Assembly (NCBI GenBank): GCA_043808785.1
Contig: JAZDEL010000001.1
Coordinates: forward strand, 150,001 to 182,000
Origin: Candidatus Iainarchaeum sp.
GTDB lineage: Archaea > Iainarchaeota > Iainarchaeia > Iainarchaeales > JAZDEL01
Length of the DNA: 32,000 bases
Direction of reading: 5' to 3'
Within the stretch, counting starts at the first letter, position 1; every line of letters begins with the position of its first letter. The notes under the pieces were generated by a model. The model made no database searches. It was not told where the DNA came from and saw only the letters and a program-made list of their open reading frames with translations. Below are positions 2,341-28,608 of this stretch, piece after piece. A program made the translations under genes and the position numbers.

Positions 2341-3114
2341 CTATGCCTTAGCGCCCAAGGCGCGCAGGAGTTCCGAATGTACCCTTCCATTCGAGGCAAC
2401 AATGTGCCCCTTGAAAATATCGTAAGGCTTCCCCGCGAAGTCAGTTGTCTTCCCCCCTGCTTCGCGCACAATTATCGAGGCAGCGGCTGTGTCATATGGC
2501 TTCAGGGAATGGTGGAAAAATGCGTCAATTCTCCCGCATGCGATGTGGCAGAGTTCAAGTGCCGCTGCTCCCGAAGTGCGCATGCCCTGGGAGCGGGTGA
2601 GTATGGCTGAATACTGCCGCATGGTAATGCGGCTCTTTTTGCCGCGTTCATACGGGAAGTCAGCGCCGACAAGGCAGTCAATCAGCTTCGCGTGCGAGGA
2701 CACGCCTATGCGCCTGCCGTTTAGCGTTGCACCCCCGCTCTTCTGCGCGCTGAACATCTCGCCCCTTATCGGGTCATATACAACGCCCAGCAGAGCCTCC
2801 CCGCCCTTGTAAAGCCCTATTGAAATGCAGAAAAAAGGGTTCGCGTGCGAGAAATTTGTGGTGCCGTCTATGGGGTCAATTACCCAAACCCTGCCGTCCT
2901 GCGGGTTTTTCGCGTGCCCCTCCTCAAGTATGAATCCGTGCTGCGGGAACTTTTTCTCAAGTGCCGCACAAATCATGCGCTCCGCCTTTACATCCGCATC
3001 TGTCACCAGGTCGACCCTGCCCTTGTGCCTCACAGTAAGGCGCGAGCCGAAACGCCTGAGTACAAGGTTACCGGCTTTCCTTGCGGCGGCTTCAGCTGCC
3101 TTAAGTTCGTCCAT
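2341..3114 (-). CDS. suhB: inositol monophosphatase / fructose-1,6-bisphosphatase family protein
   Basis: IMPase family signature WVIDPIDGTTNF plus ..EE.. and ..GAAALELC.. motifs. 257 aa, ATG start. Confidence 0.9.
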   Translation of the reverse strand: MDELKAAEAAARKAGNLVLRRFGSRLTVRHKGRVDLVTDADVKAERMICAALEKKFPQHGFILEEGHAKNPQDGRVWVIDPIDGTTNFSHANPFFCISIGLYKGGEALLGVVYDPIRGEMFSAQKSGGATLNGRRIGVSSHAKLIDCLVGADFPYERGKKSRITMRQYSAILTRSQGMRTSGAAALELCHIACGRIDAFFHHSLKPYDTAAASIIVREAGGKTTDFAGKPYDIFKGHIVASNGRVHSELLRALGAKA

Positions 3115-3135: not shown

Positions 3136-4440
3136 TCAGGGTTTCCACCTTGCCATTGTGCGCGGGAAAGGTATCGCGTCCTTTATGTTCTCAAGGCCGC
3201 ATATCCATGCAAGCACGCGCTCTACCCCGACACCGTAGCCCGAGTGCGGCACGCTGCCGTACCTGCGGAGGTCGAGGTACCATTCGTAATTTGCCGGGTC
3301 CTCGCCCTGCGCCTTGAGCGCCTTCTCAAGTTCCTTTATGTCCGTGTCGCGCTGGCTGCCGCCGATTATTTCCCCGTAACCCTCGGGGGCAAGCATGTCG
3401 AAGCACAGCGCGGTCTTTGCGTCCTTCGGGTCGCGCTTCTTGTAAAACGCCATTATCTCCTTCGGGTAATTCGTAACTGCAACAGGCGTGTCGAAGTGCT
3501 TCATTATGAGGTCTTCCTCTATCGTCCTGAGGTCCTTTCCCCATGGCACATTCTTGTGCTCCTTCTCCTTCAGGATTTTCAGCGCATCCGTGTATGTTAT
3601 TGTCGGGAACTCGCTCTTTGCGGCCTTCTCGAGCTTTTTCACGTCCCTGCCGAGCAGTTCGAGCTCCGCGCGGTTGTGCTCAAGCACTTCCTCCAGGATG
3701 AACCTGATTTCATCCTTGGCAATCTGTATAAGTTCCGGCAGTTCAACCCATGCTGCCTCCATTTCCGCCATCCAGAATTCGGAAAGGTGCCTTGAGGTCT
3801 TTGAGCGCTCCGCCCTGAACGTCGGCCCCACGTCGTAAACCTTCTCAAGCGCGAATATTGCGGCTTCCGCATACAGCTGCCAGCTCTGCGTCAGGTATGT
3901 CTTTTCCTTGTAATATTTCACCTCGAAAAGCGTGCTTCCCCCTTCGCACTGGTTCGGCTGGAGTATGGGCGGGTCGAATTCGTAATAGCCGCGCTCGCGG
4001 AAGAATTTGTGTATTGCCCCGACCATTGTGCTGCGGATTTTCATCACCGCAGTGAGGTGCCTGCTCCTCAGCCAGAGGTGCCTCTTGTCCATCAAAAACT
4101 CGGTGCTCTGGTCCTTTGTTATCGGGTATGGCTCTGCAAGGTTCACAACCTCGAGCGCCTCGACATCGAGTTCAACCCCCGTGGGCGCGCGTTCATCCGC
4201 CTTGAGCGTCCCTTCCACCTCGACAGATGATTCGATAAGCAGCTTCTCAGCCTCGGCCCACAACTTTCCCCCTGCCTTATCCTTCTTCACAACGCACTGG
4301 ATTATGTTCGATGAATCGCGGAGCACGATGAACTTCATCGCGTTGGAGCCGCGCTCCCTGTAAACCCAGCCGCGAATTGCGACCTTTCCTGTTTTCTTGT
4401 TTATGGCTTCCTGCACGGAAATAAATTTCCCGCCCTTCAC
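3136..4440 (-). CDS. asnS: asparaginyl-tRNA synthetase (class IIb)
   Basis: OB-fold N-terminus (VAIRGWVYRERGSNAMKFIVLRDSS.IIQCV). Class II motifs FRAERSKTSRHLSEFWMAEME, GGSQR, GYGVGVERVLAWICGLENIKDAIPFPR. The track start at 4554 is TTG and overlaps aspS by 59 nt. GTG 4440 gives a normal N-terminus. Confidence 0.9.
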   Translation of the reverse strand: MKGGKFISVQEAINKKTGKVAIRGWVYRERGSNAMKFIVLRDSSNIIQCVVKKDKAGGKLWAEAEKLLIESSVEVEGTLKADERAPTGVELDVEALEVVNLAEPYPITKDQSTEFLMDKRHLWLRSRHLTAVMKIRSTMVGAIHKFFRERGYYEFDPPILQPNQCEGGSTLFEVKYYKEKTYLTQSWQLYAEAAIFALEKVYDVGPTFRAERSKTSRHLSEFWMAEMEAAWVELPELIQIAKDEIRFILEEVLEHNRAELELLGRDVKKLEKAAKSEFPTITYTDALKILKEKEHKNVPWGKDLRTIEEDLIMKHFDTPVAVTNYPKEIMAFYKKRDPKDAKTALCFDMLAPEGYGEIIGGSQRDTDIKELEKALKAQGEDPANYEWYLDLRRYGSVPHSGYGVGVERVLAWICGLENIKDAIPFPRTMARWKP

Positions 4441-4495
4441 TGCACCGCCCCCCGCACCGAACCCTTTCTCCCCTCGCCCGTTTTTTGTTTCACGC

Positions 4496-5839
4496 TCATG
4501 GCACAACCCTCTCCGTGTCCCTCGGGAAGAGCACGGCTTCGCGGATGTTCTCAAGCCCTAGCAATTGCTGGGTTATGCGCTCTATGCCTATCGCAAACCC
4601 GCCGTGCCTCGGCACGCCGTATTTGAAGAATTTTGTGAACCACTCAACGCTCTGCCTGCTTACGCTTTTCTCATCAACCTGCTTCATAAGGTTGCCATAC
4701 CTGTGCTCCCTCTGCCCGCCGCTGCTGAGTTCCATGCCGCGGTAATAAAGGTCAATGCTCCTTGCCCATTCAGGTTCCGCATCAACGCGCATGACGTAGA
4801 ATGGTTTTTTCGCAAAGGGGAAGCGGTTTATGAAATAAAATTCCGTGCCGTATTTCTTCTTCACGTGCTCCCGGAGTAGGGATTCCGCTTCCGCGTCAAT
4901 GTCCTCTCCGTGCGCAATCTTTTTGCCCGCATGCTTCAGGATTTCATAAATCTTCGGGAACCTGAGTTCGGGGAAAGGCGCCTTTGGCACCTCCAGCTTC
5001 ACGCCGAACATTTCAAGCTCGCGCGCGCAGTCCTTCTTTGCCCTGCCCAGCATAGCGCACACCATCTCCGCCTGCACCCTTTCCACCTCGATCTCATCCC
5101 CGAGGAATGCCCATTCAACGGCAATTGTCCTGTGCTCGCAGAGGTGCTTCACAGTGTGGCTTTTCTCCGCGCGCCAGCTCGGCCCTATATCATACAATTT
5201 TTCCACGCCGCCCGCAATTGTCAGCTGCCTGTGCAATTGCGGATCCTGCCTGAGGTATGCCTTCTTTCCATAAAATGCAACTTCAAAAACATCCGCACCG
5301 CTCTCGCTTGCAGTGCCCATCAGGCAGGGCGTGAACACCTGCAGGAAGCCGTGTTCGTTCAGGTATTCCTGCGCGCCCTGTATGAGTTTCGCCTGCACCC
5401 TGAAAACCGCTGCATTCTTCGGCTGGCGAAGGTCGATGCTGCGCCAATCAAGCCTTGCGCTCAGGTCGCTTTCGATTTTTCCCGAAATATCCAAAGGCAC
5501 AGGTGCGTGCGCAGCGGAAATAATTTCCACATGCTCGGGCAAAATCTCAAATCCCCCCTCAGCCTGCGCGGATTTCTGCACTGTGCCGTGGATAAGGACA
5601 ACGGACTCCTTCGTCAGGCTTGAGAGCGCATCAAATATTGCCTTATCCGTTTTCGCTGCATGGGCGGTTACCTGCACCCTCCCTTTTGCATCACGCAGTT
5701 TCACAAAAACAAGCTTTCCGAAAGCGCGGACATCGTTAACCCAGCCCCCGACAAGCGCTTTTTTGCCGTGCATCTTGGGCGTTATCTCATCCGAGAGCAA
5801 TCTTCCCTGCTTTGGTTCTTTTCCCGCCATATGGTTCAT
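4496..5839 (-). CDS. aspS: aspartyl-tRNA synthetase, archaeal type
   Basis: OB-fold N-terminus (LVGGWVNDVRAFGKLVFVKLRDAKGRVQV). Motifs FRAEKSHTVKHL, GGQREHR, GGFAIGIERITQQLLGLENIREAVLFPRDTERVVP. Confidence 0.9.
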   Translation of the reverse strand: MNHMAGKEPKQGRLLSDEITPKMHGKKALVGGWVNDVRAFGKLVFVKLRDAKGRVQVTAHAAKTDKAIFDALSSLTKESVVLIHGTVQKSAQAEGGFEILPEHVEIISAAHAPVPLDISGKIESDLSARLDWRSIDLRQPKNAAVFRVQAKLIQGAQEYLNEHGFLQVFTPCLMGTASESGADVFEVAFYGKKAYLRQDPQLHRQLTIAGGVEKLYDIGPSWRAEKSHTVKHLCEHRTIAVEWAFLGDEIEVERVQAEMVCAMLGRAKKDCARELEMFGVKLEVPKAPFPELRFPKIYEILKHAGKKIAHGEDIDAEAESLLREHVKKKYGTEFYFINRFPFAKKPFYVMRVDAEPEWARSIDLYYRGMELSSGGQREHRYGNLMKQVDEKSVSRQSVEWFTKFFKYGVPRHGGFAIGIERITQQLLGLENIREAVLFPRDTERVVP

Positions 5840-6898: not shown

Positions 6899-6956
6899 GT
6901 GCCGGGAAAGTTGCCAAGGGCAGAATGCCGAGAAAATTTTATGGAATTGCGCTTGC

Positions 6957-7227
6957 GGAGGCTTAACGCCTCCTCAACTCCCAAAGAATGAAGAAATAAG
7001 TCAGCAAGGAAGAAAATGAATACCTCCTCCCTATTTTGCCTATCGGCAAAATGGGGCGCATTCGGGCTTCCCTATTTGGCTTCTGCCAAATGGGCGCAAT
7101 TGGGCAATGCCCAATTCGCGGTGCCCGAATAGCGTGCCTTTTGTCTCCCCCGCCTTGCGGGGGTTTTACGGGTGCAGCGTAAGCCGCCTTGGGCGCCATT
7201 GCCATGCGCACGGCGTAAGCCGTTTTT
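6957..7227 (+). repeat. intergenic array of GC-rich hairpins (copy 1 of a two-member element family)
   Basis: Hairpins at 6957-6973, 7029-7056, 7071-7094, 7098-7116 and 7147-7163. gcgtaagccg occurs twice (7177-7186, 7213-7222), the second followed by T5. Confidence 0.6.
7060..7130 (+). ncRNA. candidate structured element: closing helix P1 around two hairpins (three-way junction-like), copy 1
   Basis: P1 attcgggc (7060-7067) pairs with gcccgaat (7123-7130). H2 is cctatttggc-ttct-gccaaatggg; H3 is aattgggc-aat-gcccaatt. Covaries with the copy at 28230-28301. Confidence 0.4.
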
Positions 7228-7280
7228 GGATGAACAAAACCTTTAAATTTGCGGGTTGCGTTATCGGCTAAGGTGGGAAA

Positions 7281-7688
7281 ATGTTTGGTAAAATGCACAT
7301 AATGAACCCCCCCGTGAAAAAGCTCCCCAAAAAACTTTTTGTTGTCGATGTTGGCACTGACCCCGCTGATTATATGGGCCATTTTTTTGATAAGCTTTTC
7401 GGAAAAATAAGGGCCGGGCACATTCTCGAGCCTAAAGGGGCACTAACCATAAAATCCGAAGATTTGGACTGCCTCAAGGGTGTTGAAGCAGCAGCGAGAA
7501 CAGCGGGGCTTGCGGTAAAAATCCCGCCCCGCGCTGCCAGCAAGGCGGAATTGGCGCAGTGGGGCGGCATGGAAAATTTTCCCCTAACGAAAGAGATGGC
7601 GAAACACAAGCAAATCTACATTCTCGAAATCAGCGCCGAGAAAGTCAAACCCGGGCATACGGTCCACGTCGAAAAATGGTACCGCTGA
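7281..7688 (+). CDS. hypothetical protein (135 aa)
   Basis: ATG preceded by aaggtggg (7270-7277) and tttaaatt (7242-7249). Ordinary soluble-protein composition, no recognised motif. Confidence 0.55.
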   Translation: MFGKMHIMNPPVKKLPKKLFVVDVGTDPADYMGHFFDKLFGKIRAGHILEPKGALTIKSEDLDCLKGVEAAARTAGLAVKIPPRAASKAELAQWGGMENFPLTKEMAKHKQIYILEISAEKVKPGHTVHVEKWYR

Positions 7689-7751
7689 ACCCCGCCCTCA
7701 GACGCTTAACGCAAGCCGCAGTTTTGGTTTTCTTGCGCACCTTGCACAGGA

Positions 7752-10288: not shown

Positions 10289-11512
10289 ATGCAGCTCATA
10301 AAAACAATAAAGGTAAAGATACACAAGCCGACAAAGGTAAAGGCACGGCTGATGCATCTCATTCACGAGAATGCCCTATTGCTAAATCAGTATGCGGGGC
10401 TGATTCAGAAACACAAAACTGCCTCGAAGGCGGAGCTTCACAGGCTCACTTACAAAACACTGCGGGAAACATCCAAGCTTCCATCGGCAATAATCCAGAC
10501 CGCCCGCGATAAGGCAATAGAAGCGCACAAATCCTATCGCGGCAGGGTAAAACGCAAAATGAAAGCAAGTCCGCCAGCCTTCGGCAAAAACGCGCCTGTG
10601 CGCCTTGACAGCAGAACGCTTCAAATAAGAGAAACTGGCAACAAAATCAAATACTTTGCCTCGCTTGCAACAAACGGTGAAAGGGTTCACGTGCCCCTGC
10701 TCGGGCACCGATACCAGCATAAATATCTTGCAATGCTGGTGCGCGGCGAGTTGCAGATGGGGGCGGCAGAGCTTCTGAGAAAAGGAGATGATTTTTACAT
10801 TTACCTCACAGTGAAGAAGGAAGCCGCACCTTGTGCGGCTAATGAAAGTGCAACGCCGATTGCAGTAGATTTGGGGCTTGTGAACCTCTCAACTTCCGTG
10901 ATTTTGAGAGGCGGCAAGCCTACAAACATAACTTTCCACAGGGGCGGAAATGCGATAAGAATGCGAAATCACTTTGCCGCATTCCGCGCCTCGCTGGGAA
11001 AGGCAAAAAAGCTCTGGAGAATAAAATCCGCAAAAAGAAAGGAGCAGCGCTGGATGCGAGACCTCAACCATAAGATATCTTCGGCAATAGTCAGGCAGGC
11101 AAGCAGCGTGGCAAATCCCGTGATAGTGCTGGAGCGGCTAAAATACATAAGGCGAAAAATAAACTATTCAAGGAAAATGAACATGCTGCTACACGGGTGG
11201 AGTTTTGCCCAGCTCCAGAGTTTCATAGCGTACAAAGCCGCTTGGGCAGGCATTCCAGTGGCTTATGTAAAGGCCGACTACACCAGCCAATGCTGTAGCA
11301 AATGCGGGCACACTGAGAAGGCAAACAGAAAAGGAAGAATTTTCAGGTGCAGGAAATGTGGTTATGCGCTGAATGCAGACCTGAACGCGGCAATCAATAT
11401 TGGGGGGAGATACAAAACCTTTGCATCGGGCTATATGCCGGATGTAATGGGCGACGTGGCAGCGCCCTTAGCCTTGGAGGCAATCGCTTACCAGGGAAGC
11501 CTGCGCCTTTAG
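10289..11512 (+). CDS. tnpB: TnpB (IS200/IS605 OrfB) RNA-guided endonuclease family protein, apparently intact
   Basis: RuvC-I IAVDLGLVN, RuvC-II VIVLERL, zinc finger CSKCGH..x..CRKCGY, RuvC-III NADLNAAINIG. 407 aa. Confidence 0.9.
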   Translation: MQLIKTIKVKIHKPTKVKARLMHLIHENALLLNQYAGLIQKHKTASKAELHRLTYKTLRETSKLPSAIIQTARDKAIEAHKSYRGRVKRKMKASPPAFGKNAPVRLDSRTLQIRETGNKIKYFASLATNGERVHVPLLGHRYQHKYLAMLVRGELQMGAAELLRKGDDFYIYLTVKKEAAPCAANESATPIAVDLGLVNLSTSVILRGGKPTNITFHRGGNAIRMRNHFAAFRASLGKAKKLWRIKSAKRKEQRWMRDLNHKISSAIVRQASSVANPVIVLERLKYIRRKINYSRKMNMLLHGWSFAQLQSFIAYKAAWAGIPVAYVKADYTSQCCSKCGHTEKANRKGRIFRCRKCGYALNADLNAAINIGGRYKTFASGYMPDVMGDVAAPLALEAIAYQGSLRL

Positions 11513-11740
11513 GTGCGGAATGATGTCACATATAAACCTATTTTCCCCGTGCCTAGGAAAACCCCGCACGGGTTCCAGCCCTGCGTAAGCCCCGTTTTTT
11601 ATTGCCTCTGCATTTGGCGCACCCTTGCATGTAACCCCCTGTTTGCCCCTGCCCGCGAAAACCTCGCTTTTTATTGCTTTTGCACCATAATGCAATCGTT
11701 AAAAAACCGAAAAAATGAACAGAAAAAAAGGAGGGTTTTC

Positions 11741-21908: not shown

Positions 21909-24065
21909 TTAAAGTGTCTTGCCGGGCTTCATTTTTTTGAGCAGCGGCAGCAGCCTGCCTTTCTTTTTGAAGAGCAGGATTGCGCAGGCCAGGAGCAGGC
22001 CGGCTGCGGAAATCGCCGCGACTGCGGCAAAAATATTTCTCTGGAGTGCGGCGTCCCCGCCTCCGGCACCGCCGCTTTCCCTGCCAAGCAGGCGCCTTAT
22101 CGCCTTCACTATCCAGCCGTCTGCAGCCTGAGTTTCTCCGCCGCTGACAGACTCCAGTGCGCTGTCGAGGTACTCTATCAGCTTCGGGTCGTTCAGGCGC
22201 TTTGCAATGCCCTTTGCTTTTTCAATTGAATCTTTTGCATCGCCGAATTTCCCTTCCTTGGTTTCGTCGCGTGCCCTGTCCAGGAGATAAAGGATTTCCT
22301 CGCTTTCGCTTGCGGAATTGCAGTCGTGGTTTTTCGGGATTTGGCCCTCGGGGCATTCAATCCGCCCGCATTTTCCGCCCCCGCACTTTTCGTCCGCAAG
22401 GCAGTCCGCATCGGAAGCGCAGGGCACTTCCCTGCAGCCCTCGTCAATCTTTATGCATTCGCCGAACAGGCCGCCGGCATTGCAGAGCCTTGCTCCGGCG
22501 CAGCCGCCGGCCATGCACTCCGATTTTTTTCCCGGGCAGCATTCAAGCCCTTGGGCATTGCAGTCGCCGAATCCTGCCCCGCAGGCACTGCAGTAGCGCC
22601 AGCCTGAAAGTGCCATGCAGTCTGCACCGTCTATTTTCGGGGTGCAGGGTATTTTTGCGCCCGGCTCGCATATTCCGCGCTTTGGGGAGCATTCGCTCCA
22701 CGCGCTGTTCTCGCATTTTTTTGTCCCCGCGCATCCCGACGCTGTTGTGCAGTCCGCAGCGCTGCCCTCGGTGCACGCACCCTTCACAGTTACCCTCACC
22801 GTGTCCGGGCCGGATTCGTTCGGCGGCACGGCATTGTCCCTGACAACAAGCCTGAATTCATAAACCTCGTTCCCCTCCCCTGCCGTAAACCTCGGCTTCT
22901 TGGGGCTGGACAAATCAAGCGTTACTGCGGTGCCGCCTGTCTGTGCCCACACGAACTGCAGCGGGTCAGCGTCAGGGTCATAGGAGGCGCCCGCATCCAA
23001 AACAACCGCAGAATTCGGCTCTACTGCCTGGTTCGGGCCCGCATCCGCTATGGGTGCGGAGTTCACGCACAGGAATTTGAATATGTCGGATTCCGGGCGC
23101 GTGCCCGCTATTATGCCGCCGTCGTTTGCCTGCGCCAGGGCGTAAACATTTATCGCATTCGGAAGCCTTCCCGTGCTGCTCCAGCTGCCGCCATTGTCGG
23201 TTGTCCTGAATACCTCGGCATTCCACAGCGTGCCGGCATAGATGCTTGAGTCGCCAGCCCGGAATAGCGAATAAACCCCTTCCGCCCCGGGGAGTCTTGC
23301 CATATTTTGCCAGCTGGCGCAGTTATCCCTTGAGACAAACACCGCTCCGTTCGGCTCGGTGCCTGCAAAAACTGTGCCATCCGAGGCAGCAAGCATGCTC
23401 CTTACCTCGGAACTTCCTGCCAATTCCGCCTCCGCCCAGCTGGCGCCGTCATCTGCAGACCTGAACACAGCGCCTTTTTGTGTCCAGCCGAGCTTTCCGC
23501 CGGCGCAGATTGTGCCGTCCGCCGCAACGGCAACCGCGAACGGGCTATACAGCCGGGCGGAATTCGAGGCTATTGCGCTTATTTTTGCCCAGCTGTTGCC
23601 GTTGTCGGCCGAACTGAACAAAGTGCCGTCCGTTGCATTTGCAACCATGAGGACACTGCTCCCTTTCCTGGCAAAGCCGATTATGTTTGAGGCAAGGGCA
23701 TCGGGCTTTCCGATGCTTTGCCAGCTGCCCCCGCTGTCCGCAGACCTGAAAACCCCGCCGTTCGGGGATGTGCCTGCAAGGATTGACCCGTCCGGCGCCT
23801 CAAAGAGGCAGGTTACCCTTTCTGCATTGGCGAGCTGCCCCGCGCCCTGCCACGAGTTTCCGTTGTCCGTTGACCTGAAAATTTCCGCGTTCGGGCCGCT
23901 GCCGGCCAGAAGCGTGCCGTTGCCCGCTTTCAGAATGGAAAGGACCCTGTCGGAGTTCCCGAAGTTTGCCGCCCTCATCCAGCTGCAGGATGCAGCGGAA
24001 GCGCACGCCGCAAAAAGCAGGGAGAACAGCACGAAACACGCGAATTTTTTCTGCACTTTTTTCAC
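21909..24065 (-). CDS. surface protein: signal peptide, BNR/Asp-box beta-propeller, PKD-like Ig domain, Cys-rich region, C-terminal TM anchor
   Basis: Six S/T-x-D-x-G-x-S-W boxes (STDNGNSW, SADSGGSW, SADNGNSW, SADDGASW, SRDNCASW, TTDNGGSW). PKD-like PIADAGPNQAV..LDAGASYDPD. C-terminal IFAAVAAISAAGLLLACAILLFKKKG. GTG start 1 nt after the upstream stop. Confidence 0.85.
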   Translation of the reverse strand: MKKVQKKFACFVLFSLLFAACASAASCSWMRAANFGNSDRVLSILKAGNGTLLAGSGPNAEIFRSTDNGNSWQGAGQLANAERVTCLFEAPDGSILAGTSPNGGVFRSADSGGSWQSIGKPDALASNIIGFARKGSSVLMVANATDGTLFSSADNGNSWAKISAIASNSARLYSPFAVAVAADGTICAGGKLGWTQKGAVFRSADDGASWAEAELAGSSEVRSMLAASDGTVFAGTEPNGAVFVSRDNCASWQNMARLPGAEGVYSLFRAGDSSIYAGTLWNAEVFRTTDNGGSWSSTGRLPNAINVYALAQANDGGIIAGTRPESDIFKFLCVNSAPIADAGPNQAVEPNSAVVLDAGASYDPDADPLQFVWAQTGGTAVTLDLSSPKKPRFTAGEGNEVYEFRLVVRDNAVPPNESGPDTVRVTVKGACTEGSAADCTTASGCAGTKKCENSAWSECSPKRGICEPGAKIPCTPKIDGADCMALSGWRYCSACGAGFGDCNAQGLECCPGKKSECMAGGCAGARLCNAGGLFGECIKIDEGCREVPCASDADCLADEKCGGGKCGRIECPEGQIPKNHDCNSASESEEILYLLDRARDETKEGKFGDAKDSIEKAKGIAKRLNDPKLIEYLDSALESVSGGETQAADGWIVKAIRRLLGRESGGAGGGDAALQRNIFAAVAAISAAGLLLACAILLFKKKGRLLPLLKKMKPGKTL

Positions 24066-27113: not shown

Positions 27114-28082
27114 ATGAAATCGTTTTTCCTGCTCTGCCTTATTGTGCCCGCGCTGCTGCTTTGCGGCTGCGCGCAGGAGCCCAGGCCGGGAGCAGGCGCT
27201 GGCGCTGCTGCGGAATACGGCTGCGATTACAGCTGGTACCAGAAAATAACGGATAAGGCAACGGGGGAAATAGTATGGGCATGCCCCGGCACGCACCCAT
27301 ACTGCAAAACAGGGACTGCGCAGTGCTGCAAATACGACGACGAGAAAAAGGAGCACTTTGACTGCATTGATTGCAGGGACGGGCGCTGCAGCGGGACTTC
27401 CCCCGCATACCGGGATGAAAGCGGGAAGGAGCCGGACGAAGCGCAAACATGCTCCAATGCCGAGTATTCAACGGAAATAGCAAACGACTCATGGGCTTAC
27501 GGCTGGGACAAGTTCATAGAGCTGGACTGGGAGAGCCAAAACAGGCTGAGGGCAAAGGCTGCCGAGGAGGGAAGCACTGCCCTGCAGGGCATAAGCGATT
27601 TGGGCTGCATAGAATACCTCGACCTCAGCGCGTTCGATTACAAGGAATATAAGGGAATTACAAGCATTGCTGCCTTGAGCGCTGTTTCAAGCCTGAAAGT
27701 GCTCCGGCTGAAAGCAACCCCGGTTTCGGACCTTTCCCCGATAAGCGGCTTAACCAATCTCGAGGAGCTTGACCTGATAGGTGCCGATATTTCCAGCCTG
27801 TCCGCAATAAGCGGCCTCAAAAAATTGAAGGTTCTGAGAATAAACCTGACTGATGTTTCGGACCTTTCCCCGCTGGGCGGGCTGGCAAGCCTTGAATATT
27901 TCTCCATGAACCGCGTGAAAGTTACGGACATCTCGCCTCTGGCAGGCCTCAAGAGTTTGAAAGACGCAGACCTGATGTACAACGAGCAGATTCCGCAGCA
28001 GGACTGCATTGCATTGAGGGAGCAGCTCCCGAACACCGATGTCTGCTGCCCGGGAATCGGCTGCGACCCGAGATTCAATTAG
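27114..28082 (+). CDS. lipoprotein with Cys-rich N-terminal module and internalin-like leucine-rich repeats
   Basis: Lipobox LLLCGC. Cys-rich 60 aa. Then at least 6 repeats of 22 aa: L..L.L....VSDLSPL.GL..L. Confidence 0.85.
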   Translation: MKSFFLLCLIVPALLLCGCAQEPRPGAGAGAAAEYGCDYSWYQKITDKATGEIVWACPGTHPYCKTGTAQCCKYDDEKKEHFDCIDCRDGRCSGTSPAYRDESGKEPDEAQTCSNAEYSTEIANDSWAYGWDKFIELDWESQNRLRAKAAEEGSTALQGISDLGCIEYLDLSAFDYKEYKGITSIAALSAVSSLKVLRLKATPVSDLSPISGLTNLEELDLIGADISSLSAISGLKKLKVLRINLTDVSDLSPLGGLASLEYFSMNRVKVTDISPLAGLKSLKDADLMYNEQIPQQDCIALREQLPNTDVCCPGIGCDPRFN

Positions 28083-28087
28083 AACAG

Positions 28088-28391
28088 CCTTTTCGGAGCG
28101 CGAAACCTTTGCGGTTTCGCTTCCAAAAGGATTTCGGGCTTTTGCCCGAAAACTTTCGGCCAATGGCTGAAATCCTGGCGAAAACTGCAGTTGTTCGCCC
28201 GCAGGCGAACTGTTCTTGCGCGGACACAGTTCCGAAACTGCGCTAATTGGGCTTTGCCCAATTGCGCCCATTTGGCTACGGCCAAATAGGGCGTTTCGGA
28301 AATTTTCGGGCGTTACGCCCGAAGCCATCCGCGCGTGATGTGTGCGGCTTTCAGCCACGCTTGCCCGCCGAAGGCGGGCTATTTCTTTTGT
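28088..28391. repeat. intergenic array of GC-rich hairpins (copy 2 of the element family, inverted relative to copy 1)
   Basis: Hairpins at 28100-28120 (nested in 28088-28130), 28132-28151, 28154-28172, 28193-28210, 28245-28263, 28267-28290, 28305-28323, 28342-28360 and 28363-28379. Confidence 0.6.
28230..28301 (-). ncRNA. candidate structured element, copy 2 (three-helix core)
   Basis: On the minus strand: P1 ttccgaaac/gtttcggaa; H2 cctatttggc-cgta-gccaaatggg; linker cgc; H3 aattgggc-aaa-gcccaatt. Same architecture as 7060-7130. Confidence 0.4.
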
Positions 28392-28418
28392 CAACTTTTC
28401 TTTCCCAAAGAAAAGTTG
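28392..28418. terminator. perfect 12-bp palindrome caacttttcttt-ccc-aaagaaaagttg giving T tracts on both strands; candidate bidirectional terminator abutting the tRNA-Leu 3' end
   Basis: Arms at 28392-28403 and 28407-28418. On the minus strand CUUUUCUUU follows the tRNA discriminator immediately. Confidence 0.4.
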
Positions 28419-28501
28419 CAGGGAGCAGGATTCGAACCTGCGAAAGGCACTAAGCCACAGGGTTCTAAGCCCTGCCCCTTTGGCCGCTTGGGTATCCCTG
28501 C
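28417..28501 (-). tRNA. tRNA-Leu (anticodon UAG, complement of 28465-28467), 85 nt, long variable arm
   Basis: Acceptor GCAGGGA/TCCCTGC; D arm CCC-AAGCGGCCAAA-GGG; anticodon arm CAGGG-CTTAGAA-CCCTG; 16-nt variable arm; T arm GCAGG-TTCGAAT-CCTGC; discriminator A. Confidence 0.9.
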
Positions 28502-28527
28502 AATTGTAAAAATTAGTGTCTCGCGGA

Positions 28528-28535
28528 TTATATAA
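28528..28535 (-). promoter_or_regulatory. TATA box (ttatataa within palindromic ggattatataatcc) for tRNA-Leu
   Basis: 27-34 nt upstream of the tRNA 5' end at 28501. Confidence 0.4.
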
Positions 28536-28549
28536 TCCTTTTCCCGCGC

Positions 28550-28608
28550 CCTAAACAAACTCCACGTCGCGCACCTGCGCAACCGCGCCGCACCTAAACA
28601 AACTCCAC
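28550..28608. repeat. 16-nt perfect direct repeat cctaaacaaactccac (28550-28565 and 28593-28608)
   Basis: The second copy is the last four codons plus the stop of the KH gene. The first copy lies 43 nt downstream of it on the coding strand. Confidence 0.7.

Follow-up and report, generated by a model that had tools for sequence, protein, structure and literature searches.

Genomes of DPANN archaea are very small and streamlined, and spacers of 330-380 nt full of conserved hairpins are unexpected ballast in them. Two such spacers, 6899-7280 (site 1) and 28083-28415 (site 2), lie in the window, the whole 32,000-nt stretch analysed here, which comes from a metagenome-assembled genome (MAG) of a Candidatus Diapherotrites (DPANN) archaeon. 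The question that they raise is what the hairpins are. The original prediction had read a core at site 1, with a second copy on the opposite strand at site 2, as a three-helix element (P1, H2 and H3) with a wholly covarying closing helix, under selection on structure. Here, we describe a two-hairpin unit that recurs at these and other loci, and weigh whether it is a small DNA repeat or a functional RNA.

The helices lie where they had been placed: P1 pairs 7060-7067 with 7123-7130, H2 spans 7071-7094 and H3 7098-7116, the neighbouring hairpin H1 lies at 7029-7056, and T.G pairs occur at 7032:7053 and 7073:7092. On the minus strand, a second copy occupies 28301-28230, with identical H2 and H3 stems, the loops cgta and aaa, and the P1 pair ttccgaaac/gtttcggaa. 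No inverted repeat in the window is longer than the 51-nt match between 7070-7120 and 28241-28291. The minimum-free-energy fold of both copies has three helices (z = -7.4 for copy 1 and -6.9 for copy 2), and none of 200 shuffles folds as well. The opposite strands are about as stable (z = -6.9 and -6.1, respectively), so folding energy does not pick the strand. Perfect hairpins with a stem of at least 7 number 24 in the window versus 11-18 in composition-matched Markov-simulated sequence, and they cluster at 7029-7163 and 28100-28418.

Table 1 Coordinates of the hairpin units, the accompanying hairpins and the genes around them. Positions are those of the window unless a relative is named.
Feature	Position	Strand	Sequence or remark
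AspRS (aspartyl-tRNA synthetase) gene	4496-5839	-	
Winged-helix protein gene, 158 aa	6422-6898	+	copy 1 lies downstream of the gene
Hairpin at site 1	6957-6973	+	GGAGGC-ttaac-GCCTCC; inside block 6950-6989
Outer unit 1	7029-7134	+	
H_A of outer unit 1 (H1)	7029-7056	+	CCCTATTTTGCC-tatc-GGCAAAATGGGG; T.G at 7032:7053
H_B of outer unit 1	7057-7134	+	carries inner unit 2 in its loop
Inner unit 2, copy 1 (core without P1)	7070-7120	+	CCCTATTTGGC-ttct-GCCAAATGGG, CGC-AATTGGGC-aat-GCCCAATT-C-GCG
Hairpin at site 1	7147-7167	+	CCCCCGC-ctt-GCGGGGG, then TTTT; conserved in L014
Two mini-hairpin motifs	7177-7186, 7213-7222	+	GCGTAAGCCG; the second followed by TTTTT
TnpB-family gene, IS200/IS605 type (RNA-guided nuclease)	10289-11512	+	right end near 11530
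Mosaic hairpin cluster	28083-28418	-	downstream of tRNA-Leu
Hairpin of site 2 cluster	28100-28120	-	GCGAAACC...GGTTTCGC
Hairpin of site 2 cluster	28132-28151	-	TTTCGGGC-aaaa-GCCCGAAA
C hairpin, site 2 cluster	28193-28210	-	GTTCGCC-tgcg-GGCGAAC
Host hairpin of copy 2	28230-28301	-	TTCCGAAAC (28301-28293) / GTTTCGGAA (28238-28230)
Copy 2 of unit	28241-28291	-	CCCTATTTGGC-cgta-GCCAAATGGG, CGC-AATTGGGC-aaa-GCCCAATT-A-GCG
Hairpin of site 2 cluster	28305-28323	-	TTCGGGCG-taa-CGCCCGAA
Hairpin of site 2 cluster	28363-28379	-	GCCCGCC-ttc-GGCGGGC
D hairpin	28392-28418	-	CAACTTTTCTTT-N3-AAAGAAAAGTTG; overlaps 3' end of tRNA-Leu
tRNA-Leu	28415-28502	-	copy 2 lies between it and a convergent leucine-rich-repeat gene
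Unit locus in L014	2357-2463		
Unit in L043	1114-1168		CCCTATTTGGGT-acga-ACCCAAATGGG, CGC-ATTTTGCC-taaa-GGCAAAAT-A-GCG
Unit locus in L040	5024-5054		
C/D hairpins in L015	7112-7170		
C/D hairpins in L041	9204-9221		

The AspRS of the window is 100% identical to one from a 'Candidatus Diapherotrites archaeon' MAG, encoded on a 214-kb contig. Relatives were reached via homologues of the proteins of the window. L014 is 88% identical in AspRS and syntenic with site 1, and L040, from the same sample, carries the tRNA-Leu locus; L043 is 80% identical in AspRS; L015, L041 and L046 belong to one relative with an AspRS about 75% identical; and L042 and L045 are more distant, with a GC content of 37-39% (L042, 39%; L045, 37%, AspRS 65% identical). 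A covariance model search, as the original prediction had proposed, turned up further copies: the model, R1, built from four units, finds units in the window, L014, L043 and L040 only, scoring inner unit 2 at 69.6 bits and copy 2 (minus strand) at 74.0 bits. It finds none in L042, L045 or L046, which indicates that the family is confined to a narrow clade. Seven units or part-units are seen in approximately 70 kb of clade sequence from four related genomes, the unit architecture recurs at five loci in four genomes (Table 1), and all copies lie in spacers between genes. Exact-pattern scans for the H2 hairpin in the genome collection, and for CCTATT...AATGGG(N)CGCAWTYGG in the metagenome and viral collections, gave single non-hairpin chance matches only; hence the family is not in those collections.

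Judged from the copies found, the conserved entity is a unit of 51-56 nt made of two abutting hairpins, H_A (24-28 nt) and H_B (26-27 nt including its clamp). H_A consists of a CC:GG foot, an invariant T.G pair, an ATT:AAT collar, a variable GC-rich upper stem and a 4-nt loop, and its upper stems (TGGC, CTGGC, TTGCC and TGGGT) are every one perfectly complementary. In H_B, a CGC:GCG clamp with a 1-nt bulge (A or C) leads into an A(A/T)T collar, above which come a variable upper stem and a loop of 3-4 nt. Both hairpins follow a common scheme of G+C clamp, single conserved irregularity, collar, variable upper stem and free loop. The bulge is present in 7/7 H_B hairpins, and the clamp, which appears in every minimum-free-energy fold, is complete in six of the seven units; the seventh (the L014 inner unit, tail GCA) pairs two of its three positions. 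What had been described as linkers is thereby partly revised: the cgc is present in both copies as reported, but it pairs with the GCG of the '6-nt 3' linker' across the 1-nt bulge. The T.G pair was rightly said to be legal on one strand only, and on that strand, the unit strand, it is invariant in all six H_A hairpins. The reverse complement of the unit still scores 28-46 bits against R1; H_B therefore resembles an inverted H_A, in a BIME-like manner, as in inverted REP pairs. The outer unit formed by H1 and P1 has the same order as the inner one (H1-CGC-ATTCGGGC...GCCCGAAT-A-GCG, like H2-CGC-H3-C-GCG), and the L043 and L040 units share the H_B clamp plan with outer unit 1 and H3.

The closing helix P1, by the same comparison, is not part of the unit. 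It is missing from the L043 unit and from outer unit 1 (7029-7134), and thus absent in 2/5 complete units, so that the three-helix element does not hold up as a conserved entity. What was called P1 in copy 1 is the upstream unit's H_B, with a CGC...A-GCG clamp as in H3: on its 5' side the CGC clamp (7057-7059) is followed by ATTCGGGC (7060-7067, the P1 5' arm), its loop consists of TT, inner unit 2 and GT, and on its 3' side GCCCGAAT (7123-7130) is followed by a bulged A (7131) and GCG (7132-7134), with the CGC paired to the GCG over the bulge in the minimum-free-energy fold. The 'P1' of copy 2 is a host hairpin unrelated in sequence to the P1 of copy 1. Excising 7070-7120 leaves ATTCGGGC-TTGT-GCCCGAAT, which is the reverse-orientation form of an L014 hairpin, ATTCGGGC-ACAA-GCCCGAAT, and excising 28291-28241 leaves the clean host hairpin TTCCGAAAC-GCA-GTTTCGGAA, with a loop of G+CA. 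Read from these excisions, both copies in the window sit in the loop of a pre-existing hairpin, an arrangement that gives the apparent three-way junction and makes 'P1' the host hairpin; in the ortholog L014 the nesting is retained. The 'wholly covarying P1' is therefore two different hairpins, each with an inserted unit, and not compensatory evolution. Hence, the claim of selection on structure survives for the stems, which are constrained, with free loops and real covariation, but not for the compensation of P1.

At four-fold sites of the adjacent genes the window genome and L014 are 56-65% identical, whereas the stems are 93-100% identical. Block 6950-6989 (plus strand) is identical at 40/40 positions. 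The H1 stems are identical at 24/24 in the ortholog (L014 2438-2463) and the H1 loop has gone from tatc to gaaa (1/4 identical); over the H1 stems, the CGC and the P1 5' arm, 42 of 45 positions are identical and all three mismatches fall in the H1 loop. The inner unit is 77% identical. Two pairs of its H3 are swapped (A-T to T-A, and T-A to C-G), and its H2 in L014 carries a compensated 1-bp insertion of C and G; the L014 P1 is shorter by one base pair, likewise compensated, and L014 also has changed loops and an isolated extra copy of the 5' arm of H2. In the alignment of four units 98.8% of the cells are paired, the U.G column is constant, and seven pairs differ in both partners, no pair in just one of them, without G.U intermediates; with the compensated changes of the ortholog, the stem substitutions in the further copies are compensatory, as the original prediction had expected. 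As far as these alignments reach, stems and clamps are constant while approximately 40% of neutral sites have changed and the loops drift, and stem changes are all-or-none Watson-Crick replacements of both arms at once.

In L043 the unit precedes the AspRS start codon by 20 nt, and a TATA-like stretch lies on its other side. The AspRS upstream spacer can be aligned between the window, L014 and L043, and the gene upstream of it is orthologous (61% identity); only L043 has a unit there, with clean boundaries, and it is cleanly absent in the window and L014. From this alignment and the scattered loci, units are discrete modules, present or absent at orthologous sites and dispersed at unrelated ones. 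The unit is sense at both loci with co-directional flanking genes (site 1 of the window and L043). The L040 unit, downstream of tRNA-Leu and cut by the contig end, is antisense to the tRNA gene, and copy 2 of the window is sense to the same tRNA-Leu. The L043 unit is flanked by the A-rich near-repeats AAAAAG and GAAAAAG, which could be chance, and no target-site duplication was seen at the two loop-resident copies of the window.

Other dispersed hairpins accompany the units at site 2. The C hairpin family is GTTCGCC-YGCR-GGCGAAC, and with its flanks it is identical over 26 nt at three non-orthologous loci (window 28192-28217, the end of L015 and the end of L041). D and C are contiguous in L015, after an FeS-assembly gene, whereas in the window approximately 170 nt of other hairpins, including copy 2, lie between them, and the D hairpins of the window and L015 differ by a compensated T/A indel. 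Three contigs of the relatives end inside hairpins of these families. In L040 (4134-5004) a methyltransferase gene lies between a KH-domain gene and tRNA-Leu, which are adjacent in the window (28415-28594); this difference is a local rearrangement beside the hairpin cluster.

Site 1 and its ortholog differ in other respects too. A 26-nt insert (7187-7212) is flanked by the two GCGTAAGCCG motifs and is missing in L014. A longer stretch of approximately 530 nt (7187-7718), which includes an ORF of 135 aa (7281-7688) without a match in Pfam, PHROG or NCBIfam, is missing from the syntenic L014; its edges carry the GCGTAAGCCG copies (7177-7186 and 7213-7222) and GCAAGCCG (7711-7718), all of which could fold into mini-hairpins with GNRA-type loops, and it may be an inserted cassette or have been deleted in L014. 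Conversely, between the conserved block and H1, L014 carries approximately 96 nt of hairpins (2470-2580, minus strand) that the window lacks, and a 13-bp stem, AGGGCGTTGAACG / CGTTCAACGCCCT, is among them. A 13-codon ORF at 6925-6966 (MPRKFYGIALAEA), overlapping block 6950-6989, recurs in L014 (MTGKICKITLAEA) with unchanged length and stop codon.

Elsewhere in the window, two paralogues of class II (Asp/Asn/Lys-type) aminoacyl-tRNA synthetases stand in tandem (3136-4554 and 4496-5839, both on the minus strand), a pair that L015, L043 and L045 share. The TnpB gene is the only transposon gene in the 32 kb, with no TnpA beside it; copies 76-77% identical occur in L042 and L046 at unrelated loci, and conservation downstream ends after ...GATGTCACA. 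A 718-aa gene with BNR and PKD domains (21909-24065) contains a 42-nt direct repeat five times at 23181-23762, at a spacing of approximately 130 nt, which probably encodes protein repeats. GC skew tracks gene orientation across the window and is uninformative on the direction of replication, and the promoter and terminator scan used bacterial models, which makes it uninformative for an archaeon.

Several identities can be set aside. At Rfam gathering thresholds only two tRNAs match in the window, and at both sites nothing matches at E up to 10, in line with the earlier remark that the element could not be matched to tRNA, SRP, RNase P, C/D-box RNA or a riboswitch; the units resemble Rfam families (tRNA, SRP, RNase P, C/D and H/ACA sRNAs, riboswitches) in their compact multi-helix fold and covariation, but are multi-copy, nested and variable in orientation. 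Coding is rejected: ORFs overlap the repeats on the minus strand (6963-7421 and 27750-28394), the one at 6963-7421 has no family match, and the ortholog differs at the repeats by 1-nt and 11-nt indels. Integron attC sites are rejected as well, since the units lack a GTTRRRY core and the window has neither an integrase among its ORFs nor a cassette array, and so are replication-origin repeats, the defining motifs and genes of which are missing. Operator sites for the adjacent winged-helix regulator do not fit either, since a dimeric DNA site predicts no covarying, sequence-variable upper stems. Pneumococcal BOX elements and neisserial NIMEs are bacterial short structured modules that occur between genes in variable order and number; we know of no sequence or module correspondence between them and the units, and of no nested hairpins in BOX or NIME.

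The closest parallels are with palindromic DNA. The subterminal hairpins of IS200/IS605 elements and PATE-type MITEs are likewise imperfect and strand-specific, carrying an unpaired or mismatched base, and the Y1 HUH transposase reads them on single-stranded DNA (PMC8266576), and a TnpB gene of this family is present in the window. However, the ends of that element, as set by comparison with L042 and L046, contain neither H_A nor H_B. The units as a MITE or PATE of the TnpB element are therefore rejected, because its ends share nothing with them, as is any tie to the gene itself, since relatives of other lineages carry TnpB at other loci without units. With bacterial REP, BIME and REPIN sequences (associated with RAYT / TnpA-REP) the likeness is more extensive: short imperfect intergenic palindromes (20-40 nt in REPs) with a conserved lower stem, a conserved stem irregularity, variable loops and complementary stem changes, arranged in pairs and mosaic clusters, lineage-specific and tending to break assemblies. 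A REP family commonly has tens to hundreds of copies in a genome, and its cognate Y1 HUH gene (RAYT) usually has REPs on its flanks. Loops and stems of REPs vary through complementary changes, and the elements occur as dimers and in clusters (PMC3733652); the palindromes are lineage-specific, clustered and prone to break assemblies (PMC3733652, PMC8266576, PMC6006769); and the Y1 enzymes associated with REPs and with IS200/IS605 read stem irregularities on folded single-stranded DNA, one strand being processed (PMC8266576). In archaea, loosely defined 'REPs' and MITEs have been reported, some DPANN genomes included (PMC12306157, PMC11602168).

There are also clear differences. A GTAG/GTGG or CGTC tetranucleotide at the hairpin foot is the criterion for a REP (PMC3733652, PMC6006769), and the units have neither on either strand; their feet are CC(C)T...GGG(G) and CGC...GCG. 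Because this tag is absent, the family is not REP in the strict sense. No RAYT was found in the 32 kb, the host here is a DPANN archaeon, the two hairpins of a unit abut without a spacer, each with a different irregularity, and units lie inside the loops of other hairpins.

We consider it somewhat better than an even chance (roughly 55%) that the units form a REP/BIME-like family of small palindromic repeats of DNA, specific to one narrow clade of Candidatus Diapherotrites. What favours this reading is the conserved foot, the strand-marking irregularity, the free loops, the complementary stem changes, the pairing of H_A with an inverted-like H_B, the mosaic clusters, the presence and absence at given sites, the occurrence in either orientation and the assembly breaks. 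Several observations count against it. Besides the missing GTAG/CGTC foot, no Y1 transposase was found among the ORFs of the window in a Pfam scan of the 32 kb, and only seven units or part-units were seen, in approximately 70 kb of clade sequence. The two copies of the window have identical stems but different loops and tails, unlike the products of a very recent transposition. The differences in presence and absence, compared without an outgroup, could be deletions and not insertions. Conservation of an orthologous-site copy over a large divergence, together with a wobble that is legal on one strand, would fit an RNA function equally.

Such a function is the substance of a rather unlikely alternative, in which the unit is a cis-acting RNA module of 5' or 3' untranslated regions, its G.U pair and bulge serving as points of protein recognition or as a nuclease barrier, and its role lying in transcript stabilization, 3'-end definition or translational control, with dispersal at the DNA level secondary. 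The strand-specific T.G of the six H_A hairpins, stems constrained over a large neutral divergence, the sense orientation at both co-directional loci, the position of the L043 unit between the TATA-like stretch and the AspRS start codon, and copy 2 being sense to tRNA-Leu all speak for it, but the L040 unit is antisense to the same tRNA-Leu, the seven covarying pairs lack G.U intermediates and the indels are compensated, the loops show no enrichment of stable-RNA tetraloops on either strand, and both strands fold equally well. A cis-acting role and the DNA-repeat reading are not mutually exclusive. The stand-alone non-coding RNA gene of the original prediction, a P1/H2/H3 three-way junction in two copies, now seems very unlikely: although the junction is the minimum-free-energy fold in both copies (z of about -7), with identical H2 and H3 and a complementary P1, and its nesting is kept in L014, the L043 unit and unit 1 lack P1, which in copy 1 belongs to the upstream unit, Rfam gives no match at E up to 10, the sequence directly upstream differs between the window and L014 without a conserved promoter-like motif, and the unit also turns up 20 nt upstream of a start codon (L043) and in the opposite orientation at a contig end (L040). 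The alternative that the original prediction itself named, a REP/BIME-like or MITE DNA element, fits the comparisons better than an RNA gene does. Least probable of all, we think, are functionless palindromes left by template-switching replication errors in permissive spacers, with no dedicated protein or selection; perfect Watson-Crick complementarity, compensated indels and the concentration of hairpins in a few long spacers are what such errors would give, but the foot and collar CCTATT...AATGGG with CGC...GCG recur at unrelated loci in different genomes, templating of one arm on the other would erase the T.G mismatch, which is kept, and the stems are far more conserved than four-fold sites.

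If the units are REP/BIME-like repeats, their spread could work as follows. One strand of the unit, folded as single-stranded DNA, would be recognized by a hairpin-specific protein acting in trans, as with bacterial REPs and IS200/IS605 ends, and the T.G pair and the bulge would mark which strand is recognized. A Y1 HUH-type enzyme is the best guess for the recognizer; we infer both the enzyme and the single-strand intermediate. Such a protein would copy units into exposed single-stranded targets, for example the loops of hairpins. Templating of one arm on the other would keep the stems perfectly complementary, which would account for 1-bp indels being compensated and for G.T intermediates being missing. 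That units are retained at fixed sites suggests a use for the host as well, most plausibly as structures at transcript ends or as insulators; this is the least supported step of the scheme.

Palindromic repeats are already well known in bacteria. New here are the two-hairpin unit in which a T.G mismatch and a bulge replace the tetranucleotide tag, the nesting of units in hairpin loops and the strong constraint in a small-genome lineage. As a tentative possibility, the units could be the substrate of an undescribed DPANN hairpin-recognition system, either a counterpart of REP-RAYT that uses the T.G mismatch and bulge instead of a GTAG tag and inserts into hairpin loops, or a strand-specific RNA module, recognized by a protein of its own and kept by selection in genomes of very small size. 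The locus also carries a caution: palindromic DNA modules nested one inside another can mimic selection for an RNA fold, down to perfect covariation and a 'fully compensated closing helix'. If the family is REP-like, the biology of hairpin-specific single-stranded DNA repeats, known almost entirely from bacteria, would extend to the DPANN group with a different recognition code, a mismatch and a bulge without GTAG, and the units would serve as a compact marker with which to type strains and to understand where assemblies of these MAGs break.
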